A stretch of DNA of 64,000 nt from positions 32,001 to 96,000 of the IMG/VR virus record IMGVR_UViG_2811995030_000001, one strand, 5' to 3'. Positions 4,471 to 31,810 of the stretch are shown here, in pieces (within the stretch, counting starts at the first letter, position 1; each line of letters begins with the position of its first letter). The notes under the pieces were generated by a model, which saw nothing but the letters and a program-made list of their open reading frames with translations, was not told the DNA's origin and searched no databases. The position numbers and the translations under genes are program-made. The stretch comes from a virus (Duplodnaviria; Caudoviricetes).

Positions 4471-5988
4471 TTATTCAGGTAATGAATTACTATCATTCTC
4501 TTTGCTTTTAATAGTGTTTTCATTCTGACTTTCTATTTCGGGTCTCCCATCTTCCTCTTGACCTGTAGAGGTATAAGCAGAAGCATACGGTTTGATTTTC
4601 TCTTGAAGTTTTAACACTTCTTGTTCATATACAGATTGTTCAATGTATTCATCGAAGTTTATTCCGCTTACCATATCAACAATAGGTTTCAAAGCAAATC
4701 CTTCTTGCGTATGTAATTTAAGCAATACATCAATCTTCTCTTTAAGTGTCAAAGGTTGCTCTTTGTCATAAGTTAGTGTGAAGTTGTCAGTTTGATTAGA
4801 AGGGAGGACGATGTTAAATAATTTTGCATAAATCCTTTCAATATCTTCTAACAAATCCCCAATCTTCTTATAGAGAACATCAATGTTGATTTTTGCAGAA
4901 GCAAAGTTAGAGCCTGTTCCATTTAACAGGCTTTGTGAAAGTCCATAACTAGATGTAATATCATGGTTGATTGAGTCAAACTTCTTAGGATCTAGGCTGT
5001 TTCCGCTTTTAATGTCAGGGAATTCAATGTCAGCAAATTCAGGAATAGTAACAACAGTAATTCCGTCTTTACTATTCTTCTCTAAAGCACCTTTAACTCC
5101 TGAGTGGATTTTCTTTTTAACTCCTTTAGGTAGCTTCATATTTGCATATTGACCATCATTAGCTTCACTACCAACTTTTAACACAGCAACAGCATTAATA
5201 ATTTTGTTGGCTACGGCCTTCTCTAAATCTTTAAGTTTCTTCTTGTGAAGGATGTCATACATTCCTTGTGTAATCCAACTTACCCCACGATTTTGTGAAC
5301 GTTTAAGAGTATGCGTTCTAATTACTCCTGTGCGCTCTTGAGGTAGGTCAATATATTTATACTGACTTTTTGTGGAGTTGCTTTTATAACGTTGGTAATC
5401 CTTATCTGTGATGTAAGGAGAGAGATTTTCTAATGTGACAGTTCTCATATAATCTGTCATTGTGTCAAACCAACTCATATCAACAGTAACTTGCCATTCT
5501 CCTTGCAATCTATGAGAAGGGAACACGTAATCCAAATCATCAAAAATGTAAAAGTAAGGATTCTTACTGTCTCCTAACCAAATACCACAGAGAGTTCCAG
5601 AAGTTATTGTTTGAGAAATCATATCTCGTGTTAAGGTTTTATGACCAATTTTGTAAAGAAGCTTATTAATGTTGCCCATATGTTTTTCATAGGATTTGTT
5701 TTTCTCAAAGACATCCAATTTATAATTTAAAGTAGGAAGGACTCTAGTAATGTCTAGTAATTGAAAAATCTCACCGTTTGTAATGTAATAGTATTGGGCG
5801 ATATTTTCAATTTCCTTTTGGAAAGCATCGGGATTGGAAAACCACTGTTTAAGTTTCTTACTGTCAACTTCTGTAACAATGCCGTCAGAGAATAACTTAG
5901 AAACAAATCCATCTACATAAGTGTTGATATAATCCTTATACTCATTAATACTTCGATCATAATTTTCTTGTGTAAAATCCTCACTCAC
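4471..5988 (-). CDS. yonE: Portal protein, YonE-like
   Basis: 505 aa immediately downstream of the terminase; size and synteny. Confidence 0.8.
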   Translation of the reverse strand: MSEDFTQENYDRSINEYKDYINTYVDGFVSKLFSDGIVTEVDSKKLKQWFSNPDAFQKEIENIAQYYYITNGEIFQLLDITRVLPTLNYKLDVFEKNKSYEKHMGNINKLLYKIGHKTLTRDMISQTITSGTLCGIWLGDSKNPYFYIFDDLDYVFPSHRLQGEWQVTVDMSWFDTMTDYMRTVTLENLSPYITDKDYQRYKSNSTKSQYKYIDLPQERTGVIRTHTLKRSQNRGVSWITQGMYDILHKKKLKDLEKAVANKIINAVAVLKVGSEANDGQYANMKLPKGVKKKIHSGVKGALEKNSKDGITVVTIPEFADIEFPDIKSGNSLDPKKFDSINHDITSSYGLSQSLLNGTGSNFASAKINIDVLYKKIGDLLEDIERIYAKLFNIVLPSNQTDNFTLTYDKEQPLTLKEKIDVLLKLHTQEGFALKPIVDMVSGINFDEYIEQSVYEQEVLKLQEKIKPYASAYTSTGQEEDGRPEIESQNENTIKSKENDSNSLPE

Positions 5989-7803: not shown

Positions 7804-7805
7804 TA

Positions 7806-8735
7806 TTAATTATCCTCCCTCATAGAAGGATCGTTATCTAGTTCTTGTTTTTCATAATCAGCTCTTCGTTCTTCATAAAAATTGTAAATGTCTTTATAGT
7901 CCGCTTCAGGAAGTCCTTTTAAATCTCTTATATAATTTAAATAGCACCATAAAACAACATCTGGCTTATCTTTGGGTTGTGAGATAAATTTTGGAAGTAC
8001 AGGAATAATATCTTTTCTTTCTTCTACCATTCTTGCTAACTGGCCAAATCCATCTAAACCTTGTGATAAGTCAGCTTTACTCATTTGAGAAGGTTTTAAT
8101 TTTCCTGCTTCAGCAACATCTTTAGCCATTGAAGCCCAATCCTTAGCCTGCTTAAAATCTCCTTTAGCCTTAGCTAATGTTTCATAAACTTTGTTTACAC
8201 AGTATTCTCTCAAACACTCTTCGTGCATAGTTGTAACAAGTTGAAAACTTGGACGTAATTGCAAGAATTTCTTTTCAAACAGAAGATAGTCATCATCAGG
8301 ATAACCATACCCATATTTCTCTTTTAAGTCTTCAAGCTCTTTAGGAGAGATTTTCGAGTTAGAGTGTTTGTTATCTACATCTGAGTCTTCGTTACTGTTG
8401 TTATTGACAGTCTTACTAGGTTCAGGAATCTTACTATTGCTCCAGTTTGTACCTTCAAACTGTTTTAAAGAGTTGACCATTGTCATATAACGTTTGAATG
8501 TATCAATCTTACTAGCTTTAGCTTTATCCCAATAAAGAGGATCAAACATTACGTCTAGTTGTTGAAGTACTCTGTAGATAGTGCTCATATCCTCATAGTT
8601 AACCATTGATATTAAGCAGGCTTTACAGAAAGGAATCTTACCTAGTTCTTTATAAATTCCGCTCCTTGCATTGTAAAAGTTTTTCTCTCTGTTACGTTCA
8701 TTCTTACAGTTAATGCATTTTAAAGTTTCGCTCAT
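7806..8735 (-). CDS. yonG: YonG-like protein (possible terminase small subunit)
   Basis: 309 aa, N-terminal CxxC..CxxC, directly upstream of the terminase large subunit. Confidence 0.6.
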   Translation of the reverse strand: MSETLKCINCKNERNREKNFYNARSGIYKELGKIPFCKACLISMVNYEDMSTIYRVLQQLDVMFDPLYWDKAKASKIDTFKRYMTMVNSLKQFEGTNWSNSKIPEPSKTVNNNSNEDSDVDNKHSNSKISPKELEDLKEKYGYGYPDDDYLLFEKKFLQLRPSFQLVTTMHEECLREYCVNKVYETLAKAKGDFKQAKDWASMAKDVAEAGKLKPSQMSKADLSQGLDGFGQLARMVEERKDIIPVLPKFISQPKDKPDVVLWCYLNYIRDLKGLPEADYKDIYNFYEERRADYEKQELDNDPSMREDN

Positions 8736-12435: not shown

Positions 12436-13173
12436 TTAGTTAGGTAAAGAGTTTTCTTTCTTCTTTTTTCTACGCTGTTTTGCATAAAGAACCTTTACTT
12501 TTTGAGTTCTTTTTTCTGCGCATTTTTTACATCGAAGATGATTACTACCTCTAGCTCTAAACATCTTAGGACAGTCTTCACACTTCCTAAGTCGCTTATT
12601 GATATTTTTCGCACAAGGGAGACATGTTCCTCTTCTGATTCTGTATTTAGTTAAATGCTCACCGCATATAGAGCAGAGCTTTTCAGAAAAGTCATCTATA
12701 GGTCTGAAAATAAAGTCTTCTTTCTTGTAGTTCCAAAATGTATGATTCTCTTTGAAGCTTTTCTTTATTTTTGTTTCTGAGTATCCCGACCACTGACAAG
12801 CATCTTTAATAGAAGCAAACGCTTTACCATTGTCTATACACATACATTTTACTGCATTTCTTTTATTTAAAGCTCCTAATACATCACCCCCTTCAATCAT
12901 ATTATAATAATCCTCACTTTTGACCGCATCGAGAAACTCAATCCACTCACTTTCTTTTTTGTTTAGTTCTTCTAGAGAATAGCTGTAGTCAACAATATCT
13001 CTATGAAAGTTTTCCTTTCCATATTTCTTTATAGAATTTGCTAAGTATGTACCACTTCCTAAATACGATCTCCATCTTGATCCTGTGTCGAACTTTTTCT
13101 GACCTATATATCTCTTGCCGTTAATTAGATTTGTAGTTATGTAGATAAATCCATAAGGGTTTTTAACTTTCAT
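12436..13173 (-). CDS. GIY-YIG homing endonuclease with C-terminal Zn ribbons
   Basis: GFIYITTNLINGKRYIGQ, YLGSG, YYN motifs; four CxxC pairs at the C-terminus. Confidence 0.88.
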   Translation of the reverse strand: MKVKNPYGFIYITTNLINGKRYIGQKKFDTGSRWRSYLGSGTYLANSIKKYGKENFHRDIVDYSYSLEELNKKESEWIEFLDAVKSEDYYNMIEGGDVLGALNKRNAVKCMCIDNGKAFASIKDACQWSGYSETKIKKSFKENHTFWNYKKEDFIFRPIDDFSEKLCSICGEHLTKYRIRRGTCLPCAKNINKRLRKCEDCPKMFRARGSNHLRCKKCAEKRTQKVKVLYAKQRRKKKKENSLPN

Positions 13174-15761
13174 AAATTAGAAACCCTCTTCTTTCTAGAG
13201 TGAATGGCATTATTTTGATCTTTGCTTTTCTTCCTTGCTAAGTTGGTGCACTTTGTGCATAAGGTTTGTCTTTGCATAACCTTCATTTCTCTTTTGCCAC
13301 AAGTAACACATTGAATTGTTCCTGCTGTATTCTTTTGGATATTCTCCACCAACTCATCTCCAAAACATTCCCAAAGAGTTTTCTTGTTGTTGACATTCTT
13401 CATTCCATAAAGATATTGCACTAGCACATCTGCTACATATGTAGGGTTATCTTCAATAGAGAGAAGTGTATCTCGAATTACTTGATAGATGTAAACTTTA
13501 TCTTGGTTAGTTTTGGTCGATACAGTTCCCATCATCCATTTCTTATTTCGATGCATCTCATTATATGTATTAACAATAACTTCATCAATTTTAATCTTTT
13601 TATCACTCATCAAATATGTATAATCAAACTTTCCAGCTACTTTAGTAAAATGAATACGTTGTGTAGGAATTATATCATCTAATCTATTCACTAAACTACT
13701 GTTCTTTGGCTCAACTCGTTTTTCTTCTTTATCTTTAGCATAAATGAAGAAATGAGGGGCTTTGCTTTTATTAAAATCATTAATCTTATCCTGAATCTTC
13801 TTAGGTACTTCAGGCATGAACAATGTTTTAGCATAGTCAATCACAAAGTTATTGAGACAGGTGAGCACCTTAACGATCTTCAAGCTTTCCTCATTAATCT
13901 CTGTAGTGCTGTTGAAAATCTTAGTGATTCTGTTACTGATGTCACCGATGTTGGCCTTATAAGCTAAGATAAGACTGTCATAAATCTTCTGATTATCAAT
14001 GATAGAAGGATCAGCCTTGGCCATTTCATAATACAAAGGCTTAACATCAAATTTCTCAATTACTCTCTCAGCAACTCTAATCAGTGTTTCATCCTTGACT
14101 ACAAGTAGCTTATCTCCATCATTATCAAATTGCAAAATCTTAGAAATAGGGTCAAATACACTTGTATACACTGCATTAGTGCAAAACCATTCAGCTTTCT
14201 TTTCATCGATTACATTAGTGCGTATAGAGTGCTCAATATACAAGTGAGGGCTTCTTAACAGGTCTAACTTACCTTCCCCATACAAGTTACAATATACTTC
14301 ACCGTTATTGAGCAAGCCTTTAGGATGCTTATCACCTTTAAACAAATATTCACAGAAAGCATAAAGGTCAGGGGAGACGAACGTATACTTCCCGTTAATG
14401 TTTAACTTTCCAGCTTTAGCCTGCTTAATTACAGAGGCTTTTTTATCCTTAATGGCCTGACGTGCATGAGCATCACTCAATAATTCAGGGTAGAGGGAGA
14501 GGGCTTGCTGAAAACTATTCTTTCTTGGATTAGCTTCATCAGCCCCTAAGATACGCAACATTACATCTTTGTCTTTGCCAATCTTCTGTATATCTTGAAT
14601 AGTATCATCTGCAATTGCTAATAATTCCTCATCTGACATAGTTAATGTCTGTAACATCTGATAATTAAGCTTAGCATCAGGAATCAAAGTTTCTTCTTCA
14701 TTTAGTTTTGCAGCCTGACAATTATGTAATTTAAAATTGTTTTTATACTCTTCCCAACTGGAGTAATACTTCCACATCTTAAACTGAGACTTTGTAAAGA
14801 TAACTTGAATATCCTCTTTGATGATGTCATGCTCTTTTCCGTAAATGTCTTTTACTAAGATTTGACCATTCTCATCTTTAAACTCATCAGCCTTAAAGTT
14901 AAAAGGGACGAGTAGGCCTTTAACCCAAGGAAGTCTACACATAAAGGCTTTCTTATTATTTCTGTTAGCAATAATCATTCCACAACCATCTGTATGTTCA
15001 ATTGGAATCTTCATATCTGTAGGTGTGATTTTGAATTCATTCTTTGTGTCAATATAATCTACAGTTGCTTCAACTTCAGTTTCCATATCAGGGACAACAA
15101 TTGTCTTATCAATATTGAAACCTCTCCACTGGTCTGTGGCCGAGTTCGTGAGGGCGAGGTACGCTAAAAATTTATTTGTATTACAACCACCTTTTGCGTT
15201 GATCGCCTCTAAACTCAATCCACACGTTAATGATTCTTTATGTTTTTCCCACACACTCTCTTTAAAAAATACACTTTTTTTCTGTCTAATCTGACCAGCA
15301 GATGAGCTGAAATAGCGATAAAGCTCACCTTTGTAAATAAAACCATTAAGGATGATGTCTTTTAACACCTTAAAGTAGTAGGATTGCACAATAACAATAT
15401 CATCCGTTACTGTATTGGGTTTAATTTTCAAAGTGCGACTTAAAGCACTGTCGAATAATCCGACCTTGTTTGTGTCTTTCATTGCGTCTTCTCTGAGATA
15501 ACGAATTTCCGTATTTTTCTCTAACTCCATCTTAAGAATACCTTTTAAACGCTTTAAACGTTTGCTGAGGAGCTTCTTAATTCTTTCTAACTGTTCAAGT
15601 TTATGTTTGCTTTGTTTCTTGTCTTCAGCTAACTTATTAATCTCAGCCTGTAGATGGTAAGTTTGCAACTGAAGTATATGTATATTATGTTCTCTGCCGT
15701 CACGATAAAAACCCGATGTATCTACTGAATGCACATAAAACTGTTTGCTTAAACTTTTCAA
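13170..15761 (-). CDS. yonO: Single-subunit DNA-dependent RNA polymerase, YonO-like
   Basis: 863 aa; HTDGCG, RLPWVKG, RSPHL and catalytic FDNDGD motifs; heads the late operon. Confidence 0.92.
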   Translation of the reverse strand: MKSLSKQFYVHSVDTSGFYRDGREHNIHILQLQTYHLQAEINKLAEDKKQSKHKLEQLERIKKLLSKRLKRLKGILKMELEKNTEIRYLREDAMKDTNKVGLFDSALSRTLKIKPNTVTDDIVIVQSYYFKVLKDIILNGFIYKGELYRYFSSSAGQIRQKKSVFFKESVWEKHKESLTCGLSLEAINAKGGCNTNKFLAYLALTNSATDQWRGFNIDKTIVVPDMETEVEATVDYIDTKNEFKITPTDMKIPIEHTDGCGMIIANRNNKKAFMCRLPWVKGLLVPFNFKADEFKDENGQILVKDIYGKEHDIIKEDIQVIFTKSQFKMWKYYSSWEEYKNNFKLHNCQAAKLNEEETLIPDAKLNYQMLQTLTMSDEELLAIADDTIQDIQKIGKDKDVMLRILGADEANPRKNSFQQALSLYPELLSDAHARQAIKDKKASVIKQAKAGKLNINGKYTFVSPDLYAFCEYLFKGDKHPKGLLNNGEVYCNLYGEGKLDLLRSPHLYIEHSIRTNVIDEKKAEWFCTNAVYTSVFDPISKILQFDNDGDKLLVVKDETLIRVAERVIEKFDVKPLYYEMAKADPSIIDNQKIYDSLILAYKANIGDISNRITKIFNSTTEINEESLKIVKVLTCLNNFVIDYAKTLFMPEVPKKIQDKINDFNKSKAPHFFIYAKDKEEKRVEPKNSSLVNRLDDIIPTQRIHFTKVAGKFDYTYLMSDKKIKIDEVIVNTYNEMHRNKKWMMGTVSTKTNQDKVYIYQVIRDTLLSIEDNPTYVADVLVQYLYGMKNVNNKKTLWECFGDELVENIQKNTAGTIQCVTCGKREMKVMQRQTLCTKCTNLARKKSKDQNNAIHSRKKRVSNL

Positions 15762-16360: not shown

Positions 16361-16645
16361 TTGAACAATTATTTTAAGACTACAGTTAAGAAGCTAACTT
16401 ATGAGGATGTACAGATTATAGGGAAGTTATACGAATTGCAGGCCGACTCCACTCTGAGTGCAATCCGAAGACAGCAAATTGCAGACGAACTTGACCTATC
16501 CAAACACAAACTTTCTCTAAGTATTTACAGATTAATAGGAATGTCCTTAATCGAATTTGCCAACGGAACACAGAATACTCACCTTTATGTTACTGATTTT
16601 GGAATGAAAGTCATCGAAGATACATTACAAAGGGAGGAAATATAA
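16361..16645 (+). CDS. Winged-helix DNA-binding protein, TubR-like adaptor
   Basis: RQQIADELDLSKHKLSLSIYRL wHTH; stop overlaps the tubulin start. Confidence 0.65.
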   Translation: MNNYFKTTVKKLTYEDVQIIGKLYELQADSTLSAIRRQQIADELDLSKHKLSLSIYRLIGMSLIEFANGTQNTHLYVTDFGMKVIEDTLQREEI

Positions 16646-17775
16646 TGTTAAGTTTAGCTTTTATTGGATTAGGTGGAGCTGGTGGGAATGTTGCTGAAGA
16701 GGCGAAACGGTACGGTTATCATGTGGGAGCGATTAACTACTCACAAAGAGATTTAGATTCATTAGAAGGTATTGATCCTACATTTAAACTGAGAATATTG
16801 GGAACAGAAGGAGTTGGCCATAATAGAGACTTAGCAATTGAGTTATTTACGCAACATCATGCGCTAGTTATAGATTTCATTAACAAGAACTTTCAAACTA
16901 ATGATATTATCGCTATCCCTTTTGCCTGTGGAGGTGGGAGTGGAAGTGGTTTAGCCCCAATTATATGTGATGTGTTGAAGTCTTCTTATCCAGACAAAAC
17001 GATTATCGCTATGCCAATCTTACCTGATTTATCTGAATCCACTATAAGCCAATTAAACACTTTATATGTATTTGAAGAACTATCTAATCTTGATGTGGCC
17101 GTATTACCAATAGATAATCAACAGCAAAAAGCTCAATTTTCTTCTATAGGTAAAGATAAGCTTTACACAGAAACCAATCAAAAAGCCGTCTATTTACTTC
17201 ATAAGCTATTTAGCTATACAGAACAGCATTCAAAGAACGGAAACTTTGACAAAAGGGACTTTATGACATTGTTCAATAATAAGGGGATGACTCATATTAC
17301 AGAAATCAACCTAAGTAGCGAAAAGAGTGAAGGGGAGAATGTGACTCATGATTCTATAAGTAAGAAGATTAATAACTCCTTATGTAATGGAGTTTTCATA
17401 CCGCCTCAAAAGGAGCAAATTATCAATGGGGCATTAATATTTGAGGGAAATGAGCGACTTTTAAGCTTAATTAATCCTGAAAGTGTATTTAGTTATTACG
17501 ACAACGATGTAATTGACTTATTTGAGGGGAATTATAGTGGGAAGAATAATAATCTCATTATCGCAGCATCAGGATTATCTTGGTGTAAGGAGAGATTGAG
17601 TAAGATTGAGGACATGGCCGAAAAGAAGAAGGAGGTTATCGAAAAAGCATTCTCCAATGAAAATCAGCAAACTTACCAATCACGAACATCTGTAAGTGGC
17701 TTCATGTCCAAAATTCGTCAGCCTAAAAAGAAGGCGAACTCCATTTCAGACGTATTGAGTAAGTATAAAAGGTAA
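16645..17775 (+). CDS. tubZ: Tubulin/FtsZ-family GTPase, TubZ-like
   Basis: IGLGGAGGN, GVG, tubulin signature GGGSGSG, PIDN, T7-like NFDKRDF. Confidence 0.85.
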   Translation: MLSLAFIGLGGAGGNVAEEAKRYGYHVGAINYSQRDLDSLEGIDPTFKLRILGTEGVGHNRDLAIELFTQHHALVIDFINKNFQTNDIIAIPFACGGGSGSGLAPIICDVLKSSYPDKTIIAMPILPDLSESTISQLNTLYVFEELSNLDVAVLPIDNQQQKAQFSSIGKDKLYTETNQKAVYLLHKLFSYTEQHSKNGNFDKRDFMTLFNNKGMTHITEINLSSEKSEGENVTHDSISKKINNSLCNGVFIPPQKEQIINGALIFEGNERLLSLINPESVFSYYDNDVIDLFEGNYSGKNNNLIIAASGLSWCKERLSKIEDMAEKKKEVIEKAFSNENQQTYQSRTSVSGFMSKIRQPKKKANSISDVLSKYKR

Positions 17776-17926
17776 CTCGATCTTCTATTTTGATCTTCAG
17801 TTTTCATTACCCACTTCGTTACCGAACACAAAAAATTACGTTACCCATATCGTTACCGCCTACGTGGGTAATTACCTGAGCGTCAGGTAACTAAAAAACA
17901 GTAAGCGACAATTTTGGGTAACGTAA
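17771..17926. repeat. Cluster of GTTACC/GGTAAC motifs, candidate centromere (tubC-like)
   Basis: C(G/A)TTACC at 17805, 17817, 17839, 17851 (pairs 12 bp apart); inverted copies near 17771, 17867, 17886, 17917. Confidence 0.55.
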
Positions 17927-17957: not shown

Positions 17958-18119
17958 CTATATATTGAACCGAACAATATCTTTCTTGACTAAAGTTTTC
18001 AAGAGTTGTTTACATTGTTCGGAATTCAATCCTTCTTGCTCAAAAATCCAATCATCAATTTGAGCTAATTTGTAGTCGATTTCTCGATCATCTAAATCAG
18101 ATAAAAATGAAAATAACAT
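17958..18119 (-). CDS. Small hypothetical protein (53 aa)
   Basis: MLFSFLSDLDDREIDYKLAQIDDWIFEQEGLNSEQCKQLLKTLVKKDIVRFNI, preceded by GGAAAG. Confidence 0.5.
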   Translation of the reverse strand: MLFSFLSDLDDREIDYKLAQIDDWIFEQEGLNSEQCKQLLKTLVKKDIVRFNI

Positions 18120-18259
18120 CAGCGTCACTTTCCTTTAGGCTTAATTTTTTGACCATCTTTAATTGTTTGATCGATGAATTGATCTAAGTTGCTTTGTAAC
18201 ATAAGCATCAGCTCCTAAATATGTTAGGTATAGCATGTCCATAGAAAGGAGAGATATAC

Positions 18260-18682
18260 ATGCTTTCTGAATACAAATTGAAACTTGATGAGAAGCAAGC
18301 CGAAAAGATAAAGCGACTAACTGTATATGAGAATTTCAGGAGAGAGTTAATCAAGGGAGAAGAACTGATTGAAGAAGAAGACATAATTTATGCTGCCGTT
18401 AATTTTTACCTCAACTCGATTGAAACCTTCTATAAGATCAATACACTTGATGATAAAAAAGAAAGTAAAACATTTCTGAAGTTAAAGTTCAAAGACCTTC
18501 TTAAAGAAAGCAAAACGAAAATCCAACAAAAGGATATTGCGAAATTTATAGGAGTGGACACAGGGCACATAAGCCAAGTCTTAAACAATAAAACATTTCC
18601 ATCTCTAGATGTATTCTTAAAGCTATGGGTATTCTTTGGTAGTCCTCCTTTAGACAAGGTGATTGAATTGAAAAATAATTAA
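18260..18682 (+). CDS. XRE-family HTH transcriptional regulator
   Basis: C-terminal QKDIAKFIGVDTGHISQVLNNKTFPSL; AGGAGAG RBS. Confidence 0.8.
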   Translation: MLSEYKLKLDEKQAEKIKRLTVYENFRRELIKGEELIEEEDIIYAAVNFYLNSIETFYKINTLDDKKESKTFLKLKFKDLLKESKTKIQQKDIAKFIGVDTGHISQVLNNKTFPSLDVFLKLWVFFGSPPLDKVIELKNN

Positions 18683-18761
18683 TTTTTATTTTAAAAATTG
18701 TGTATCAAACAATTTGTACTCAACATAGGCTATATCATCAAAGAGAAAAGGAAGTGACAGC

Positions 18762-18941
18762 ATGGGAACAGCTCTTATAGGAGTTATGATTCTTAAGTTT
18801 GGCGCAGTGTTAGGGATAGGGGGAGGCATTATACAGGGAACAAATGCCTTCTACTCATTTAAACCGAAAGCATCTAAGAAGAAAGGAAGTGATAACCATG
18901 ACGACAGTAAAACTAAGCATCTCCTCGAAAAATTTGAATAG
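18762..18941 (+). CDS. Small single-pass membrane protein (59 aa), not in the ORF track
   Basis: MGTALIGVMILKFGAVLGIGGGIIQG...; AAGGAAG RBS. Confidence 0.55.
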   Translation: MGTALIGVMILKFGAVLGIGGGIIQGTNAFYSFKPKASKKKGSDNHDDSKTKHLLEKFE

Positions 18942-19425
18942 TCATGTGAACTATCACAAACCAAAGAAAACTTACGCAATAACAAATAATAATAAAGAAC
19001 AGACGAAGACGGATTTTTTAGAACAAACAAAGAAAAAGGGGGAGATAAATCAAAAACAAAAGGAAATTTTAAAGAAAATCGCAAAAATAACTCTCATGTC
19101 AGGGATGGTATTTCTAACTTCAACACATCCAACATTCGCAGCAGTAGCAGTTCCAGTAGCAACCGCTCAAGAAGTAGACATAATGAATATGGGAAAATAC
19201 TTAATCACAGCTACAACAGCATTGGGAGTAGTAGCAGCGATTATAGCTTACCAGTTTGCAGGAGGACTAAGAATCTTCAGAAAGGGAGAAGTAGCCAACA
19301 AATGGTCAACGGACATCAAGAAGGGATTCATTCAGATTCTAACTGCTCCGTTCCTGTTCGCTCTATTGCACGTAGTCGTTCAATACTTTCTAGGAGGATT
19401 CGATTGGTTCTCAATGATAAAGTAA
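18898..19425 (+). CDS. Membrane protein with pilin-like (TrbC/VirB2-like) architecture
   Basis: Basic N-terminus, signal-like segment ending PTFAA, two further TM helices; start moved to ATG 18898 after AGGAAG. Confidence 0.5.
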   Translation: MTTVKLSISSKNLNSHVNYHKPKKTYAITNNNKEQTKTDFLEQTKKKGEINQKQKEILKKIAKITLMSGMVFLTSTHPTFAAVAVPVATAQEVDIMNMGKYLITATTALGVVAAIIAYQFAGGLRIFRKGEVANKWSTDIKKGFIQILTAPFLFALLHVVVQYFLGGFDWFSMIK

Positions 19426-20498
19426 AGCAAAGTAAAGCTATCCCCCTAGCCACTTTATCCGCTTTCCCTTTTGTACTTAACCCAACCAAGGCAAGTGCAG
19501 AAGGGATAAAGGATAAACTAGACGAAGCTAACAATATTATTGACATACTGAATAAAGGATACAACGGAATTGATGAAATGAAGCATAAATTAGAAGCATT
19601 CACAGAAACAGCAATACGAGTGAGTGAGTTCTTTACTAATTTGCCATTTCACATTATGCAAGGATCGGTTCTACTTATCACAAAGGTTTATGAATTACTC
19701 TCATCCTTCATTCTTTACACACCTGTTTATCTATTTCAAAACGATGCAGTGAAAGCAGTAGTTGAACAATTAACTACAGGTTCTATTTACGGACTAATCC
19801 TGTTGACTATGTTTGAAGGTATAAAGATGATTGTCAGAAAGAAGTATACTCCCCCAAGTAAGATTGTTCAGCGAAGTGTTATCTCTATGTTAGCAACAAG
19901 TTCAAGTTTATTCTTATTCTCACAAGGATTTACACTTGTCAATCAACTTTCACAAGGAATCTTTCAACTAGGGCAACAGTCAATGGGAGAAGGGGCTTCT
20001 AAAGCACTTGCCAATGTAAACCCTGATCCAATCTCTCTAATTTTCATGGTTCTTTTTGATATTGTTCTATTGATATTCTCTTGCGTCCTATTTACACAAA
20101 CGGGAACAAGATGGTATAAAACTATCAATTTAGCTATCATGAGTCCCTTGGTGATGACAGCATGGGTATTTGATAAGCACCAAAATATCTTTAATAAGTG
20201 GTGGAGAGAAGTTAAGAGGATTGGAATTGTTCAAATCGTTTATGCAATAGAACTAATGATAATTGGAATCCTAATATTTGCAACTCAGGGATCAGTAGGA
20301 ACAAAAGCCTTATTAATTAAGCTTTGCCTAAATATCGGGGCGCTGAACGCTCTAATTAAGCAACCGAAAATTGTAAATGAGTATATTGGCAAACAGGAGT
20401 CTATGGGGGATATGTGGAAAAGTATGAGTTCAAGTTTCATTCAGTTAAAAACAGGGATCAACCTCAAGAAGTTAGGAAAAATGAAACTGAAAAAGTGA
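19404..20498 (+). CDS. Polytopic membrane protein (VirB6/TrbL-like topology)
   Basis: Several hydrophobic segments, SPLVMTAWVF...FNKWW pattern; likely TTG start at 19404 after AGGAGG. Confidence 0.55.
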   Translation: MVLNDKVKQSKAIPLATLSAFPFVLNPTKASAEGIKDKLDEANNIIDILNKGYNGIDEMKHKLEAFTETAIRVSEFFTNLPFHIMQGSVLLITKVYELLSSFILYTPVYLFQNDAVKAVVEQLTTGSIYGLILLTMFEGIKMIVRKKYTPPSKIVQRSVISMLATSSSLFLFSQGFTLVNQLSQGIFQLGQQSMGEGASKALANVNPDPISLIFMVLFDIVLLIFSCVLFTQTGTRWYKTINLAIMSPLVMTAWVFDKHQNIFNKWWREVKRIGIVQIVYAIELMIIGILIFATQGSVGTKALLIKLCLNIGALNALIKQPKIVNEYIGKQESMGDMWKSMSSSFIQLKTGINLKKLGKMKLKK

Positions 20499-20510
20499 GC
20501 GTGATGACTT

Positions 20511-22739
20511 GTGAATAGATTCTTAAAAAAGCAGAAGCTAAATTATGATAATTTGAGTCGGATAGAGTATAATCTATCTAACTTCGATTCTAAGGTATCT
20601 AGCGTTCTCTCTGAATCGTTTAAATTCGATTCGAGTATAATTAGTCTCGAAACTCTTAAAATTGATTCTGAGCAATTCTGGAACGTTTCAGTACCATGTC
20701 ATTATAAAGGGGTATTTCATGAGAGGGATATAGGAGAGGAATTACCCTTTGATTTTAGCTCAGATTCCCTTGTACTGCAAGTTAAATCCACTCAGCCTAG
20801 CTTTCTACCTTTCTATGCAAAAGACCAGCTCAGCCTATTTGAAGACTTGAATAGACTGTATGTAGAAGGAGAGATATTTACTCAACTCTTATTAATTAAA
20901 CGCACCAAGGCTTACAATGAATTGCTCATTGAGCTGTACGAGAACTATCTAAATGGGAATGACATTGCTACAACTAACAAGATACTTAATGCTATGCAAA
21001 CGAGAATACTAAGAAAGTTAGGTAATATTGTTCAAGAAAACTTTGAGCGCACACCTGACACCGATATAGAAGACAAAGTAACAGACTCCCTTTATGAGTA
21101 TGAGTGGAGGATTGTTATTAACTCTAAATTCTATAAAACATTACTCCCTGAGATTGAAGAAATCTTAAAGCAAGCAGATTTTCATAATCAATTTGAGCTT
21201 CAGACTATGAAAAAGTTTAATATTGACCTTATACGCAATAGAACATTCTCCAATACTTCTCATCTACAAGTATTTTCCCAAAAGGAGCTAGATACATTGT
21301 TCCTATCGACCTCAAATATCCCAGAAGTTGAAACAAAGCCTATTCCTGTGATTGAAAAAGTAGATAAAGAGCATCCTATACACCTTTTACCTGATCCAGA
21401 AGTTAAAAAAGAGCGTGAAAGAGATGAAAGTGAGCTTAAAACGATGCTATCCAATGCTTTGAGGCGTGTAAAAGCTACAAATAACACAAAAATACAATAC
21501 ATCGAGATAGAACAAGGTGTAACTGTTGAGAGAATTGTCATGAAAATCCCTAAAGATACGAATTTCACCAACATACAGAAGAAATTAGTTGATTTACAGG
21601 CACAAACAGGAACGGATATGAACATTGAGCGTGGTAAAGAGCCTGATACAGTGACATTTTTGATTCCTTGTGAGCAAAGAGAGGTGGTTTATCTTAAAGA
21701 ATTGTTGCAGAATGAGGAATTTCTACAGTTTGCACAAGATAACCCTTTACCATTTGTAGCAGGGGTGGATATGTATAATAAGCCCCTCTACCGTTGCCTA
21801 ACAAAAGCCCCCCATCTATTAGTAGCTGGAGCAACTGGTGGAGGAAAGAGTGTATTTATCAATGCTCTGCTTATTACTTTGATACTTACTAAATCACCTG
21901 AGCAATTGAGATTATACTTAATTGATCCTAAGCATATAGAGTTAGAGCAGTATAAAGGAATTTCTCACGTAGAAGATGTGATTACAGATATGAAGAAGGC
22001 TTATAATATCTTAGAGTCATTGGTTATTGAAATGGATAAACGCTATGAACTTATGGCTAAAAACAAATGTAAAAGTATTAAAGCGTTTAACAAAAAGTCA
22101 GGAAAGTATATGCCCTATATTGTAGTTGTGGTTGATGAATATAACGACTTGAAGATGGTTTCTTCTGAGGTTGAGAGCCAAGTTGAACGATTGGGGCAGA
22201 AAGCGAGAGGATGTGGAATACATCTTATCCTAGCTACTCAAAAGCCATCTGCTGATGTATTAACGGGAACACTTAAAGCGAATCTGCCTTCAAGAATAAG
22301 TTTTAAACTATCTACCTCTTCCGACTATAAGACTGTTTTTGGAAAGGGTATTCCTTATAATTTATTAGGTAAAGGGGACGGTGTGTTGAGTTATGACGGA
22401 CAGATGGAGGATTATATACGCCTACAATCGCCTGTAATCACTCTGAATGAAGACGAAGAGGAAATGGTCTATGAGAAGATTCAAAGCCTTTACAGAGGAA
22501 AATATGAAGAATTAGAGCTATCTGAACCTGAGAGTCTCCTAGACAAAATGAAAAGGATAATTGCTAATACGAATGAGACTAGAGTTGGAGAGCTAAGAAA
22601 GCAAATGAAAATACGGATAAATGACGTACAGGACTTAATGCAACAACTTGTAGATGAGAAATGGTTAACTAAAGAAGATGGGAAGAGAGGTTATCAGCTT
22701 ATTGCAACTGAAGAAGAACTATCACAGTGGAGAGATTAA
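20511..22739 (+). CDS. FtsK/SpoIIIE-family DNA translocase ATPase
   Basis: PHLLVAGATGGGKS, LIDPK, VVVDE, ARGCGIHLILATQKP, RISF, LLGKGD; C-terminal wHTH; no evident N-terminal TM. Confidence 0.92.
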   Translation: MNRFLKKQKLNYDNLSRIEYNLSNFDSKVSSVLSESFKFDSSIISLETLKIDSEQFWNVSVPCHYKGVFHERDIGEELPFDFSSDSLVLQVKSTQPSFLPFYAKDQLSLFEDLNRLYVEGEIFTQLLLIKRTKAYNELLIELYENYLNGNDIATTNKILNAMQTRILRKLGNIVQENFERTPDTDIEDKVTDSLYEYEWRIVINSKFYKTLLPEIEEILKQADFHNQFELQTMKKFNIDLIRNRTFSNTSHLQVFSQKELDTLFLSTSNIPEVETKPIPVIEKVDKEHPIHLLPDPEVKKERERDESELKTMLSNALRRVKATNNTKIQYIEIEQGVTVERIVMKIPKDTNFTNIQKKLVDLQAQTGTDMNIERGKEPDTVTFLIPCEQREVVYLKELLQNEEFLQFAQDNPLPFVAGVDMYNKPLYRCLTKAPHLLVAGATGGGKSVFINALLITLILTKSPEQLRLYLIDPKHIELEQYKGISHVEDVITDMKKAYNILESLVIEMDKRYELMAKNKCKSIKAFNKKSGKYMPYIVVVVDEYNDLKMVSSEVESQVERLGQKARGCGIHLILATQKPSADVLTGTLKANLPSRISFKLSTSSDYKTVFGKGIPYNLLGKGDGVLSYDGQMEDYIRLQSPVITLNEDEEEMVYEKIQSLYRGKYEELELSEPESLLDKMKRIIANTNETRVGELRKQMKIRINDVQDLMQQLVDEKWLTKEDGKRGYQLIATEEELSQWRD

Positions 22740-22802
22740 TTTCTTTCCACTTTTTTGTTTACATTAACATAAATAAATTATATAATATAAAAAGATTAAA
22801 AC

Positions 22803-23477
22803 ATGTATTCAAAAGGAGATGATGTTTATTTGTTTAAGATTCAGATGCCTAACAGTGTTATTAGAGACAGTGAGTTTAGTTCCGCTTCTTTTTACGTCTT
22901 AGCTAAGTTTATTCAAAGGTTCTATGTACAGAAACAATCTACAACTACATTCCAGTTAGACCATAAGCAATTTATGTATTACGCAGGGATTAAGAGTAAT
23001 CAAGGCTTTAAGAAGATTTTAAATGAATTATATGAGAGAGGAGTTATTAAGAATAAAATTGATACATTACCCAGAAAGGAATTATTAACGATAGAGTTTA
23101 ATGCAGAATGGTGTGATGAACAAGGAAAGCCGTTTGCTCAGCTACCTTATACTATACTTAGTAAGGAACTGTTAGATTTAATTGGCTATCAGGGAGTACG
23201 ATTATTGTTTTACTTTAGATCATACATAAGAAACACCGCCCATCATTTCTGTTTTACCTCTCAGGAAACTATAGCTACCGAAACAGATATGACAGAGAAC
23301 ACAATTACTAAATACACTAAGATACTTAAAGATAATAAATTAATTAGAGTAAGTAAACATGTTTTAACCGCTACCTATAGTTACGAAGAGGATGAATTTA
23401 ATAATTCAAAAATGGAATTTAAAAAGTACAATAATCACTATTTTTTAGACATCGAAAAGTTGAAAAAATTTAAGTGA
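22803..23477 (+). CDS. Replication-initiator-like winged-helix protein
   Basis: CFTSQETIATETDMTENTITKYTKILKDNKLI HTH typical of phage/plasmid Rep proteins; followed by direct repeats. Confidence 0.6.
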   Translation: MYSKGDDVYLFKIQMPNSVIRDSEFSSASFYVLAKFIQRFYVQKQSTTTFQLDHKQFMYYAGIKSNQGFKKILNELYERGVIKNKIDTLPRKELLTIEFNAEWCDEQGKPFAQLPYTILSKELLDLIGYQGVRLLFYFRSYIRNTAHHFCFTSQETIATETDMTENTITKYTKILKDNKLIRVSKHVLTATYSYEEDEFNNSKMEFKKYNNHYFLDIEKLKKFK

Positions 23478-23534
23478 AAAATAGAGTAAAAATAACCCCA
23501 AATTGCTAATGCTTTTTTAGCGATTTGTAATACT

Positions 23535-28925: not shown

Positions 28926-30545
28926 ATGTTTAATAATAATCCTGATTTCTATCCAACGCCTGACAATCTACAAAGAAAGATGTTAAATAAAATTGATTTT
29001 AGAAAAGTACAATCAGTATTAGAGCCTTCAGCAGGCAAAGGAGACTTAGTAAAAGCGATTTATAAACAACTTGACTACACTAGGAATTATCGTAGAACTA
29101 ACAAATATGATGTTGATACTATTGAGCTTGATGAAAATCTAGTGCATATATTAAAGGGGAGAAACTATAGAGTTGTTCATGATAACTTTCTATCTTATGG
29201 AACTTTTAAAAAATACGATGCTATAATTGCAAACTTTCCATTTTCAGAAGGTGATAAACACGCTTTGCATGCAATAGAATTAGCAGAAAAACAAATACAA
29301 TCTTGTCAGCTAGTATTTTTATTAAATGCTGACACTTTAAAGAATCCATTTTCCAACACTCGAAAACATCTTATTAGAAAACTTGAGGAATATAACGCAG
29401 AAGTTGAATATATAGAAAATGCCTTTCTAAACAGCGAGCGCTCTACAACAGTAGAAACGGCACTTATTTATATAAATATAGAAAAGAAAGAAAGTAATTC
29501 GATCTTAGTGGATGAGTTGAAGAAAGAAGAAGCGCATAGAACTAATAACAATCAATATACAAGCGATAAACTAATCAATTCTGATTTTATAAAAGGAATC
29601 GTTGAACGCTATAATTATGAAGTGAAAGCAGGATTAAAGCTAATAAATGAATATAATAGTCTTAAACCGTTAATGTTGAAGAGCTTTGAGGAAAATGATA
29701 CACCAGTTTTAAAGCTTGAGCTTGAACGTGAAGACAATGAGGAAAGCAGCCTAGAAAATGCATATATAAAACAAATCCGCTCCAAGTATTGGCAAGCGCT
29801 ATTTTCAAATGAGCAATTTATGGGGCTTTTTACAAGCAATTTAAAACAAAAATATATGCAATATGTAAATGAATTAAAAGACTATGATTTTTCTTTATAT
29901 AACATTTACACTTTAAGAATACAGCTTAGTAAGGAAATGACACAAGGCGTTGAAGAAACTATTTTAAACTTATTTGAAGAGTTTAGCCATAAACATTATT
30001 ATGATGAGTCATCAAAAAACGTCCATCTTTTCAACGGCTGGAAAACTAATAAATCTTATAAAATTAACAAAAAAGTAATTATTCCTCTAAATGGCTTTAA
30101 TACATGGTGGGGCATGAAGTACAATCCTACTAATTATGATGTACTAGACAAATTAAAAGACATTGAAAAAGTGTTTAATTATTTAGATGACGGAAAAACC
30201 GAAGAGATTGACATAACAGACACTTTAAAAATGGCAGAATACTACCAAGAAACTAAGAAAATAGAGTTGAAATATTTCTATGTTACTTTCTACAAAAAGG
30301 GTACATGTCATATTGAATTTAAAAATATGGAATTGCTACATAAGTTTAATCTTTTTGGCAGTCAAAAGCGTGGATGGATTCCTAATAGTTTTGGTAAAAC
30401 TACATATAGCAATATGACAAAAGAAGAAAAAGCTGTTGTAGATTCTTTTTGTGGAAAAGAAGAATATAATAAAATATTGAATAATAGCGAGTATTATCTA
30501 TATGAGCCAGAAAAAACATTATTATTAGATGGAGGAGTTGCATGA
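28926..30545 (+). CDS. SAM-dependent DNA methyltransferase-like protein with DUF4942-like C-terminus
   Basis: DFYPTP, VLEPSAGKGD (motif I), IIANFPF (motif IV-like), YKKGTCHI. Confidence 0.8.
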   Translation: MFNNNPDFYPTPDNLQRKMLNKIDFRKVQSVLEPSAGKGDLVKAIYKQLDYTRNYRRTNKYDVDTIELDENLVHILKGRNYRVVHDNFLSYGTFKKYDAIIANFPFSEGDKHALHAIELAEKQIQSCQLVFLLNADTLKNPFSNTRKHLIRKLEEYNAEVEYIENAFLNSERSTTVETALIYINIEKKESNSILVDELKKEEAHRTNNNQYTSDKLINSDFIKGIVERYNYEVKAGLKLINEYNSLKPLMLKSFEENDTPVLKLELEREDNEESSLENAYIKQIRSKYWQALFSNEQFMGLFTSNLKQKYMQYVNELKDYDFSLYNIYTLRIQLSKEMTQGVEETILNLFEEFSHKHYYDESSKNVHLFNGWKTNKSYKINKKVIIPLNGFNTWWGMKYNPTNYDVLDKLKDIEKVFNYLDDGKTEEIDITDTLKMAEYYQETKKIELKYFYVTFYKKGTCHIEFKNMELLHKFNLFGSQKRGWIPNSFGKTTYSNMTKEEKAVVDSFCGKEEYNKILNNSEYYLYEPEKTLLLDGGVA

Positions 30546-31810
30546 CTAGAGAAGTGTACCTAGACAATTTACCAAAATGGGAGACGGGCGGTAATAAAGG
30601 TCGAATAGATTGGTCTAAATCAGCAGGATACAAAGTTGGTTTTCTTTATAACGATGTAAAGGGGTATATTGAAATACTAGATTATGATAAAAATAAACAA
30701 ATCCTTGTAACTAAATATAAAAACAACACTCTGCATATAAAAACTTCACATTTTAAAAAGGGTGCAATAGGAAACTTGCTAGGCTTAATAAATCATGCGC
30801 ATACCTATAACAAAGGTGATGTTGTAAAAGTATCAACAGGGAATATTGAAGTTTTAGATCAAATCTTGATAAAAAACAGTAAAAATCACACTGTTAGAGG
30901 ATATAAATATAAATGTTTAAACGATGGATATATAGGTGAAGTGTCTGAACCAAAATTAAAAAATAAAAATGGGTGTTCAGTTTGTAGCAACAGAATAATA
31001 ATTAAAGGGATAAATGATGTAGCAACCACTCATCCGCATTTACTAAGCTACTTTATAAATAAAAATGATGCTTATAGAAATTCTTATGGGAGCAGAAAAG
31101 AAGTGTTAATGCAATGTCCAAATTGTGAGCATAAAAAGAAGTACAGTATAGATAAACTTACAAAAAGAGGCTTTCCTTGTCGTAAATGTGGAGACGGTAT
31201 TTCCTATCCAGAAAAATTTATATTTAATTTACTTGAGCAATTAAATATTGTATTTGAAATACAAAAAGTTTTTGAGTGGTCAGATAGTAGGCAATATGAT
31301 TTCTATTTACCAGAGTTGAATTTAATTATAGAGACACATGGGTTGCAACACTATGAAAATAATTATTCTTTTTCTCCTGATGTAAAATTAAAAGACATAC
31401 AAGAAAATGACAATTATAAATATAAATTAGCACTAAGAAACAACATATATAAATATATTGTGTTAGATTGCAGGGAATGGGAAAATAATTGGATAAAAGA
31501 TAGTATTGAAAATAGTGATCTAGCAAAAATATTTGATTTGTCTAAAATTAATTGGATAAATTGTCATATGTTCTCATGCTCTTCACGTGTAAAAGAAGTG
31601 TGTGATTTATGGAGCGAGTCTATAAGTGACACGAAATTAATAAGTGAAAAAATAAAACTGTCTAGACAAACAGTAATTAAGTATCTAAAACAAGGAAGTG
31701 AATTAGGTTGGTGCGATTACAACCCTAAAAAGAATATGTCTGATAATGGTAGAAATAATATTATGAAACGAAAGACGAATTTGAAGGCGAACAGTCATAT
31801 AGCAAAGTGA
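30542..31810 (+). CDS. Zinc-ribbon homing-endonuclease-like protein
   Basis: CSVC..GINDVATTHP, CPNC, CRKC, SYPEK, YDFYLP..IIETHGLQHY. Confidence 0.65.
   Translation: MTREVYLDNLPKWETGGNKGRIDWSKSAGYKVGFLYNDVKGYIEILDYDKNKQILVTKYKNNTLHIKTSHFKKGAIGNLLGLINHAHTYNKGDVVKVSTGNIEVLDQILIKNSKNHTVRGYKYKCLNDGYIGEVSEPKLKNKNGCSVCSNRIIIKGINDVATTHPHLLSYFINKNDAYRNSYGSRKEVLMQCPNCEHKKKYSIDKLTKRGFPCRKCGDGISYPEKFIFNLLEQLNIVFEIQKVFEWSDSRQYDFYLPELNLIIETHGLQHYENNYSFSPDVKLKDIQENDNYKYKLALRNNIYKYIVLDCREWENNWIKDSIENSDLAKIFDLSKINWINCHMFSCSSRVKEVCDLWSESISDTKLISEKIKLSRQTVIKYLKQGSELGWCDYNPKKNMSDNGRNNIMKRKTNLKANSHIAK

Follow-up and report, generated by a model that had tools for sequence, protein, structure and literature searches.

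The stretch of DNA analyzed here (the window) is 64,000 nucleotides (nt) long and comprises bases 32001–96000 of a 136,534-bp record, IMGVR_UViG_2811995030_000001, a single sequence that IMG/VR classes as a provirus and that CheckV rates at 100% completeness. Between 18762 and 22739 its + strand carries four co-oriented, tightly packed genes, g1 to g4, which we treat together with the XRE-family gene at their head as one cassette. The block is conserved as a unit among its relatives, and it is predicted to set a membrane protein resembling VirB6 of type IV secretion systems (T4SSs) beside an FtsK-type motor that carries a VirB4-like head. A first-pass annotation, made from the letters of the sequence, had described four co-oriented genes, the first three overlapping, that follow an XRE gene and lie between TubZ and Rep modules; the list of open reading frames (ORFs) and a refinement of the start codons bear this out. 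The features of the locus, with protein lengths in amino acids (aa), are these:

16361–16645, + strand: TubR-like gene, 94 aa, abutting the TubZ gene on its upstream side; no curated family match
16645–17775, + strand: TubZ-like GTPase of the tubulin/FtsZ family, 376 aa (Pfam Tubulin, 46.1 bits, cut-off 33)
17771–17923, no strand assigned: nine RTTACC/GGTAAY hexamers in both orientations, directly after tubZ
18260–18682, + strand: XRE-family regulator, 140 aa, heading the cassette (Pfam HTH_3, E = 6.3e-5)
18762–18941, + strand: g1, ATG start, predicted single-pass membrane peptide of 59 aa with a charged tail (hydropathy; one helix, residues 1–26)
18898–19425, + strand: g2, predicted membrane protein of 175 aa, phrog_3528 (1.9e-20; hydropathy and alignments)
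19404–20498, + strand: g3, predicted polytopic VirB6/TrbL-like protein of 364 aa, phrog_3750 (hydropathy, family matches, and structural model)
20511–22739, + strand: g4, GTG start, FtsK-type ATPase of 742 aa with no predicted transmembrane helix
20541–21308, + strand: N-terminal head of g4 (residues 11–266), a soluble alpha/beta domain with the predicted fold of the VirB4 N-terminal domain
21375–22388, + strand: motor of g4 (residues 289–626), FtsK/SpoIIIE alpha and beta domains (Pfam FtsK_SpoIIIE, 156.8 bits, cut-off 24)
22494–22688, + strand: C-terminal winged helix of g4 (residues 662–726), in the position of FtsK gamma (Pfam DnaD_N, E = 0.0019)
22803–23477, + strand: Rep-like or DnaD-like winged-helix gene (HTH_36, 8.7e-5; phrog_186, DnaD-like, 5.8e-9)

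Judging from ribosome-binding sites, we moved the starts of g2 and g3 downstream of those of the longest ORFs. For g2 the longest ORF (18844–19425) would encode 193 aa, and the likely start, the ATG at 18898 behind AAAGGAAGTGA, gives 175; for g3 the longest ORF (19302–20498) would encode 398 aa, and the likely start, a TTG at 19404 that lies 6 nt after AGGAGG, gives 364. Counted from these starts, the overlap is 44 nt for g1 and g2 and 22 nt for g2 and g3, where the longest ORFs would give 98 and 124 nt; the gap between g3 and g4 is 12 nt.

The motor of g4 is of the FtsK type. Its translation contains a Walker A motif (GATGGGKS) and a Walker B motif (VVVVDEY), and its best solved relative is FtsK of P. 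aeruginosa (2iuu, E = 2.2e-57, over g4 residues 289–626); g4 residue 289 aligns with residue 72 of the 2iuu chain, so the alpha domain is covered. The NCBIfam models rank FtsK (3.5e-60) ahead of EssC (2.5e-31), TraB (1.4e-13), and TraD (6e-4), and g4 reaches 50.2 bits with the plasmid_TraB equivalog model, whose cut-off is 800. No VirB4 chain was among the PDB sequence matches of g4, and its C-terminal ATPase domain is not of the VirB4 type. The only 19-residue window to attain a hydropathy threshold of 1.5 is the Walker A region (residues 441–459), and g4 has no counterpart of the N-terminal multi-pass membrane domain of FtsK and SpoIIIE. The Pfam match, the hydropathy, the NCBIfam ranking, and the alignment with solved FtsK thus all uphold the description of g4 as an FtsK ATPase without a membrane anchor. 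Behind the motor lies a winged-helix-like segment that is conserved among homologues; a profile built from 12 of them gave weak matches to MntR/DtxR, MarR, and GntR proteins (best E = 0.0055).

The head of g4 points to a different source. We modeled residues 1–300 with AlphaFold2 (AF2) from 40 homologues and obtained a mean predicted local distance difference test (pLDDT) score of 83.1. The top 11 Foldseek matches of this model were all TrwK/VirB4 chains, and VIA-align, a search independent of Foldseek, superposed it on residues 33–397 of TrwK, the N-terminal domain, with a Z of 13.0 and a root-mean-square deviation (rmsd) of 3.1 Å over 216 residues; the next match was chain 6lar_G of an ESX-3 complex (Z 9.6), and unrelated folds scored 6.8 or less. 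In plasmid R388, it is through its N-terminal domain that VirB4 sits on VirB3 and the membrane. Because the first 270 residues of the g4 model fold like that domain, g4 looks like a chimera of a VirB4 docking domain and an FtsK motor, and would be a VirB4 derivative that carries such a motor.

Three independent lines strengthen the first-pass view of g3 as VirB6-like. In a language-model atlas, its features lead to TrbL_3/TrbL_4 clusters (0.92). By itself g3 matches no Pfam family; its own family, which in a full HMMER scan comprises 119 representatives at 50% clustering, does so through its members, 9 of the 68 aligned sequences matching TrbL_4 (best E = 2e-9) and one matching TrbL, while among the longer members 3 of 10 score above the TrbL_4 cut-off (P0013, P0022, and P0050). 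Membership in the TrbL clan would accordingly be by transitivity through the family, not by direct match. The AF2 model of g3 is polytopic and all-helical (pLDDT 83.9), and its top nine Foldseek matches were all TrwI/VirB6 of R388 (best E = 2.4e-4; template-modeling score 0.24–0.46). VIA-align gave a Z of 10.2 to TrwI (227 residues, rmsd 5.8 Å) and 9.5 to Legionella DotA, with the next match at 7.4, values that for helical proteins are modest if taken alone. A programmed g2-g3 fusion was considered and rejected: homologues of about 500 aa exist, but in the one case tested their extra N-terminal part was not g2-like.

The description of g2 as pilin-like holds for its architecture and stops short of family membership. 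The protein opens with a basic, hydrophilic leader; a signal-like stretch closed by an AxA-type motif follows, and then two helices that form a hairpin. The family alignments conserve both the A-x-A-like site and a basic loop, AG..R.FRK...W..DIIKG, between the hydrophobic helices. The atlas leads from g2 to T4SS_pilin/TrbC clusters (0.84–0.86). Within Pfam, TrbC was matched by 4 of 34 family members (best E = 0.039) and T4SS_pilin by 2 of 34 (best E = 0.037), all below threshold, with equally weak matches to unrelated membrane families alongside. We therefore call g2 VirB2/VirB3-like in its apparent build alone.

The first-pass annotation had recognized no relaxase, VirB4, or wall hydrolase in the window, and our searches extend this statement to the whole 136,534-bp genome. 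The genome has no match to any of the four relaxase families searched (PF03432, PF13814, PF02486, and PF01076), other relaxase families lying outside the search, and none to the VirB4 family PF03135. Its only match to AAA_10 (PF12846) is the P-loop of g4, with a score of 23.1 bits where the cut-off is 27.5. The sole M23 domain is part of an open frame of 2605 aa that lies beyond the window and away from the cassette; we take that frame to encode a virion protein, by analogy with the SPbeta tail lysin. What has to be amended is the absence of VirB4, which stands for the ATPase domain; the head of g4 has a VirB4-like predicted fold.

In tblastn searches, g4 matched 384 phage records, 242 of them from Bacillus phages and 158 covering at least 80% of the protein, and g3 matched 162, of which 160 were from Bacillus phages. 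The genes g2, g3, and g4 stand together in all nine annotated or genomic loci (phage B4, phage 015DV004, two large plasmids of the B. cereus group, and five Bacillaceae genomes); the genomic search for g3, run with a reduced alignment since the 68-row one was too diverse, gave five loci. From IMG/VR, the g4 profile fetched 79 loci, 45 of which carry a full-length relative; 40 remained after removal of identical g4 sequences. In all 40 of these non-redundant loci g3 directly precedes g4, and g2 is present in 39, the missing one being cut by the end of a contig. In 35 of the 40, a short hydrophobic ORF stands before g2 in the place of g1; similarity to the g1 sequence is detectable in only a few loci. 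Neither g2 nor g3 was found in any of the 34 loci with a motor-type FtsK match only. This order is kept in relatives that are a mere 33–43% identical, and the linkage is far beyond chance.

Other neighbors are more variable. An M23 peptidase gene lies directly upstream in 20 of the 40 non-redundant loci, TubR-TubZ occurs in 7 (8 of 45 before the removal of duplicates), and an actin-like gene in at least 8. These filament-gene counts are lower bounds, since the 365-aa ParM-like gene of one locus (L027) was missed, though it is 63.6% identical to the partition protein of B4. Homologues of the XRE gene lie upstream of the cassette in 7 of the 9 loci and in 11 of the 40 viral ones, and are missing from loci of the Herelleviridae type. 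The carriers are mostly virulent myoviruses. Outside phages the block is rare: it is present on 12 of 72,556 plasmids, all large Bacillaceae plasmids that MOB-suite types as non-mobilizable (no relaxase), and of 401 genomes sampled from the class, 2 have g3, too few for a taxonomic pattern. Less sensitive searches found little, namely no match for a megablast of 18200–23500 against phages and plasmids, none when viral contigs were scanned with the g3 sequence by itself, and, for a word-indexed protein search, a single relative of the g4 head besides the queries.

Two observations on the relatives stand apart. In three loci, inserts of 0.9–1.8 kb separate g3 from g4 (L017, 4934–6775; L018, 5690–6934; L025, 5867–6742), where elsewhere the spacing is 3–250 nt; a mobile endonuclease is a possible content. 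In Sporosarcina globispora (G001 contig C20; L016 and L098), a 108-kb contig carries a second, more divergent XRE-g2-g3 copy, and a VirB4-like AAA_10 gene lies some 32 kb from the cassette copy, so the cassette and classical T4SS parts can coexist on one replicon.

The cassette lies downstream of a filament system and of a repeat array. The TubZ-like protein also matches phrog_4733, of the PhuZ type (1.4e-6), and the TubR-like protein has a weak helix-turn-helix (HTH) match of the SarA/Rot type (E = 0.015) and homologues before TubZ in eight related loci. The sequence CGTTACC occurs five times in the 64-kb window, four of them within the array, where 1.13 are expected, and none of 100 shuffles reached five. 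Arrays of a comparable kind separate the cassette from the filament genes in related loci. For 27 of the 44 non-redundant loci of 10–20 kb, the strongest hexamer cluster falls within 2.3 kb upstream of g2, a region that makes up 14.7% of the locus length (naive binomial P = 1.6e-12, uncorrected for relatedness). TTACC-type arrays accompany three kinds of filament gene (TubRZ, Alp-type, and ParM-type), each with a different small partner gene; a BLAST comparison that covered TubR and the ParM partners showed no similarity.

The hexamer type co-varies with g4. Where the putative recognition helix of g4 has the motif [IM][RK][IM]N, the array is of the TTACC type in 12 of 15 loci, against 1 of 29 loci with other helices, and other helix types pair with other hexamers, IKAE for example with GGAATT/GAATTA. 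Streptomyces TraB is an FtsK-family hexamer that moves double-stranded DNA (dsDNA) without a relaxase, its C-terminal winged helix reading the clt repeats. Because the helix motif co-varies with the hexamer, the comparison suggests that the winged helix of g4 may read the upstream array as TraB reads clt. The array is thus a candidate cis site, either a recognition locus for g4 or a centromere for TubR.

In three of the related loci, an Alp-type actin gene stands upstream of the cassette, and behind it comes a gene for a protein of 75–80 aa (L012, 6553–6780; L011, 6440–6673; L008, 6176–6418), with a hexamer array just after the latter. The start of this protein, KSVSFNLNDP..., is ribbon-helix-helix-like, and it is likely an adaptor.

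The closest published counterpart is the "DNA translocation operon," orf200–207, of the Bacillus thuringiensis phage 0305phi8-36, for which Pathria et al. (2012; PMC3357382), in the part of their report available to us, describe a relaxase-like orf200, an anchor-less AAA_10 ATPase (orf201), a virB6 homologue (orf203), and an actin-like orf207, and propose cell-to-cell propagation by DNA translocation. In our comparisons orf204 matches g2 (E = 6.7e-20), orf203 matches g3 (1.1e-73), and residues 79–348 of orf201 match the head of g4 alone (4.8e-21); conversely, the g4 profile covers only positions 63–306 of orf201 and leaves the AAA_10 motor uncovered. A search of the PDB gave no sequence match for orf201. 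The two operons thus share homologues of g2, g3, and the ATPase head in the same order, beside a filament gene and its small partner. They differ in the motor, which is of the conjugation type (AAA_10) in 0305phi8-36 and consists here of FtsK alpha and beta domains with a winged helix; in the relaxase-like orf200 that ends the 0305phi8-36 operon, for which tblastn found no match in the whole genome studied here, as PF13814 did not; in the filament, TubR-TubZ replacing the actin-like gene; and in the XRE gene that heads the present block. Because homologous heads are fused to AAA_10 in orf201 and to FtsK in g4, the head may be a docking module that changes motors, with a conjugation-type ATPase in one lineage and FtsK in the other. 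In 0305phi8-36 (L096), orf205, annotated as a low-copy virion structural protein, lies at 7399–7914 on the opposite strand between the actin-like pair and the g2 homologue.

The same g2-g3-g4 set occurs in the Bastille-like Bacillus myoviruses (Herelleviridae, Bastillevirinae; BCB4_0127 of phage B4), at 35–37% identity over 97–100% of g4. These phages differ in being virulent, in having a ParM-like protein instead of TubZ and no XRE gene, and often in an M23 peptidase; in the records examined, the counterparts of g2 and g3 are "hypothetical" or "membrane protein." Their FtsK gene has been annotated since 2013–2015 as "sporulation-related" (PMC3601020 and PMC4528723, both available in part).

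Among better-known systems, Streptomyces TraB resembles the proposed g4 in working principle; it has its own membrane-association region and no VirB6-like partner and belongs to a different family by the curated model, and the hosts here are Bacillaceae. With T4SSs (TrwI/VirB6, TrwK/VirB4, and TrwM/VirB3 of R388, and those of the ICEBs1/pCW3 type), the block shares the predicted VirB6 fold of g3 and VirB4-head fold of g4, and many of its relatives also have a wall hydrolase. It has no VirB4 ATPase domain, VirB8-like protein, VirD4-type coupling protein, or relaxase of the four families searched. VirB4 is, to our knowledge, the one universal T4SS protein, and for that reason the block is not a T4SS by definition. 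The motor of g4 is closest, alpha domain included, to the cellular FtsK, SpoIIIE, and SftA proteins, of which SftA is soluble like g4; g4 differs in lacking the four-helix membrane domain and the long linker, and its head is unrelated to them.

A functional precedent is pELF2, a linear plasmid of Enterococcus faecium, where, according to a 2026 study (PMC13492992), a minimal set of TraC, TraD, and TraG was shown genetically to mediate conjugation. The set consists of an anchor-less FtsK/VirD4-type motor, essential for transfer, a membrane-anchored ATPase, and a membrane protein with six helices in which the authors see an analogue of VirB6, TraC and TraG having no sequence similarity to VirB4 and VirB6. 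Anchor and motor are thus two ATPases in pELF2, whereas here one protein would join a VirB4-like head to the motor; we liken the systems by description, not by homology.

In outline, then, the functional idea is not new, having been put forward in 2012 for the homologous operon (PMC3357382, as available in part). Our literature search, which could not reach supplementary gene tables, found no paper on a VirB4-like head, on the version with an FtsK motor as a block, or on the arrays. We found no published report of the VirB4-like head, of the strict linkage in these counts, or of the array that co-varies with g4; what distinguishes this copy is the combination of an FtsK motor, a TubRZ neighbor, and an XRE gene at the head with the absence of a relaxase or peptidase.

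The immediate flanks of the cassette hold further small features:

17958–18128, − strand: 56-aa ORF, or 53 aa if begun at the ATG behind AAAGGAAAG; it points away from the XRE gene and is HTH-like to the eye
18651–18690, + strand: promoter-like site before g1, TAGACA-17-AATAAT (consensus scan, 10 of 12 matches)
22726–22751, + strand: terminator-like hairpin at the end of g4, a 10-pair stem with a T run
22758–22786, + strand: promoter-like site for the next gene, TTTACA-17-TATAAT

The promoter-like and terminator-like sites are pattern matches only, as is an AT-rich palindrome (inverted repeat I5) that overlaps the site before g1. The minus-strand interval 17958–18215 contains, besides the ORF of 53–56 aa, one of 27 aa identified by eye; both are divergent from the XRE gene, and a good ribosome-binding site precedes each. 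Small minus-strand ORFs occupy the corresponding place in L020 and L021, and the XRE gene with the two tiny ORFs looks like a small switch. The XRE protein has a marginal similarity to YonR of SPbeta (E = 0.005 in a two-sequence comparison). On the other side, the Rep-like gene scores 19.2 bits with RepL, just under the cut-off of 20.3, shows no similarity to the relaxase-like orf200 of 0305phi8-36, and has homologues downstream of the cassette in four loci (L008, L017, L018, and L021). It is a neighbor of the cassette, and by its position a candidate member at most.

As to the element, the portal protein gene (4471–5988, − strand) encodes a protein 54.7% identical to its match in phage SPbetaL1 and 54.5% identical to YonE, the portal of SPbeta/SPBc2, and it adjoins genes for a terminase, a prohead protease, and an 863-aa homologue of phrog_8308. 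Because the portal, terminase, and protease are SPbeta-like, we take the element to be a distant SPbeta-like phage. The phrog_8308 homologue (E = 1.3e-261), which together with the endonuclease gene behind it spans 12436–15761 on the − strand, has a DxDGD-like motif, FDNDGDK, and the SPbeta gene at the same position is yonO; the cassette stands opposite this yonO-like gene, where the rightward early arm begins. No FtsK-family gene is present in SPbeta, and for that reason we regard the four-gene block as an accessory of this lineage.

Homing-type and recombination genes are also present. A 245-aa GIY-YIG homing-endonuclease gene directly follows the phrog_8308 homologue with a 4-nt overlap, a pairing repeated in L012. 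At 28926–31810 (+ strand), a 539-aa protein has an N-terminus resembling domains of very large phage methyltransferase-like proteins, and a 422-aa HNH/homing-endonuclease-like gene follows it, likewise with a 4-nt overlap. Between 54708 and 63218 (+ strand) lie a transposase-like gene (phrog_506) and two genes for tyrosine recombinases, with a phrog_5732 gene between the latter:

59562–60611, + strand: tyrosine recombinase
62190–63218, + strand: tyrosine recombinase

SPbeta integrates by means of a serine recombinase, and the tyrosine recombinases may mark a difference from SPbeta in integration or multimer resolution.

We speculate that the cassette encodes a membrane-docked dsDNA translocon, built from T4SS-derived parts, that acts on the element's own DNA, a reading we prefer tentatively and hold to be quite possible though somewhat short of probable. 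The XRE gene with g1 to g4 would then be a self-contained mobile module. The g3 protein, with the small membrane proteins g1 and g2, would form a membrane platform or channel; the anchor-less g4 would dock on this platform by its head, as the likeness to the VirB4 N-terminal domain suggests, and, to judge from its family, would pump dsDNA as a hexameric alpha/beta motor. Its winged helix may select the element's own DNA through the upstream hexamer array, to which the co-variation points, and the conserved linkage suggests that the TubR-TubZ filament, or ParM- and Alp-type actins in the relatives, brings the DNA to the site or holds it there. The path of the DNA would lead across the membrane of a septum or of the cell, with no relaxase involved, and end either in the forespore, the mother cell being the donor, or in a sister cell of the same chain.

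We favor this reading for three sets of reasons: (i) the VirB6-like g3, the true FtsK motor, and the VirB4-like head of a g4 that has no transmembrane segment; (ii) the constant linkage, the upstream array, and the sister operon of 0305phi8-36; and (iii) the precedent of pELF2 (PMC13492992, as available in part) together with the lack of a relaxase of the families searched and of a VirB4 ATPase in the genome. Weighing against it is the nature of the main carriers, virulent myoviruses, which have no obvious gain from virion-free transfer. The head, moreover, escapes detection by sequence: none of 40 g4 head domains matched any VirB4-related Pfam family, CagE_TrbE_VirB and AAA_10 included, and hhalign of the head against three Gram-positive VirB4-like N-termini gave a probability of 0.1, equal to that of unrelated controls. 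FtsK gamma was absent from the matches of the 12-homologue winged-helix profile, g2 is not demonstrable as a pilin, and this cassette has no wall peptidase of the kind that a trans-wall channel would need. The array is not the top cluster in 17 of the 44 loci; it may instead serve the filament system as its centromere, and shared descent confounds the co-variation. Spo0A boxes (TGTCGAA) number 4 in the window, where 4.8 are expected, and none is near the cassette. Finally, deletion of orf200–207 left the plaque size and yield of 0305phi8-36 unchanged, according to the available part of the report (PMC3357382).

The same parts could serve inside the cell, g4 acting much as SftA or FtsK does, tethered by the membrane proteins at a closing septum, where it would clear or orient replicated phage DNA together with TubZ or ParM and no DNA would leave; g4 may also activate the element's tyrosine recombinases for multimer resolution. 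The constant linkage to partition-type filament genes speaks for such a segregation aid, as do the true FtsK-type motor with a winged helix in the gamma position, the two tyrosine recombinases in the window, and the soluble FtsK homologue that B. subtilis possesses and that divisome proteins recruit (PMC9320952, available in part). It leaves unexplained, however, the VirB6-like anchor and the VirB2/3-like hairpin, the M23 wall peptidase in half of the non-redundant relatives, and the fusion of the head to a conjugation-type ATPase in 0305phi8-36, and a virulent phage would hardly have to respect the division of its host. We consider it unlikely that segregation accounts for the cassette.

True conjugation, that is, relaxase-free transfer of the phage or plasmid as dsDNA to separate recipients in the manner of TraB or pELF2, would give the element a second, virion-free route of spread. 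It calls on the same parts as the membrane-docked translocon, and the presence of the module on 12 large plasmids typed as non-mobilizable for lack of a relaxase is in its favor. In the description of pBtic360, an FtsK-like gene was read as pointing to self-transfer (PMC6199540), and propagation via translocation is what Pathria et al. proposed (PMC3357382), each as far as the available text goes. We nevertheless think conjugation quite unlikely, because there is no adhesin, VirB8-like protein, or VirB4-type assembly ATPase, and no wall hydrolase in the window; because the module is rare in chromosomes and plasmids and common in virulent phages; and because the curated TraB model stays far under its cut-off.

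Alternatively, the cassette may not export DNA at all and may serve type VII-like protein secretion or a conflict role, for example the exclusion of foreign phage or plasmid DNA. EssC, the ATPase of the type VII system, belongs to the FtsK family, and g4 matches EssC/EccC; its head resembles an ESX-3 chain; PADLOC, which on g4 finds only the FtsK-like parts of the defense protein SspH (the C-terminal part, 7.9e-55) and of mad8, gives the conflict version some footing; and in temperate elements the cassette carries its own XRE regulator. Yet the FtsK match, with the DNA-translocase alpha domain included, is much above that to EssC, the motor is followed by a winged helix of apparent DNA-binding type, no PADLOC defense model matches g1–g3, and the ORF lists contain no WXG100-type substrate gene beside the cassette, which makes such a role improbable. 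That the block is a functionless, decaying remnant of a conjugative element acquired by phages, as its incompleteness by T4SS standards and the lack of a laboratory phenotype on deletion of the sister operon (PMC3357382, as available in part) might suggest, is very improbable given four open frames with intact catalytic motifs, an order kept in 40 of 40 non-redundant loci at 33–43% identity, and a g3 family of 119 representatives.

If the membrane-docked translocon is considered at its broadest, many Bacillus phages, among them virulent ones, would have a virion-independent route: on a membrane platform of T4SS origin, a pump with a VirB4-like head and an FtsK motor, fed by a tubulin or actin filament, would read a repeat array on the phage DNA and drive the double-stranded genome through the septum at sporulation, or else into a sister cell. 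We regard this extension as doubtful; if true, there would be dedicated machinery behind phage-carrying spores. A 2026 study of SPO1 describes phage genomes entrapped in spores and implicates Par-like genes (PMC12991052, available in part). The entry of phage DNA into Bacillus spores and the virion-free spread of phages are old questions, and the module offers a concrete, genetically testable candidate for both. Over 150 sequenced Bacillus phages carry it, and laboratory strains of B. subtilis are hosts to some of them. In evolutionary terms, a T4SS docking domain that swaps motors, a conjugation-type ATPase in one case and an FtsK pump in the other, would link the two styles in which conjugation is known. 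FtsK genes would also have to be read differently in phages proposed for biocontrol, where they are now flagged as "sporulation or virulence related" with no mechanism attached.

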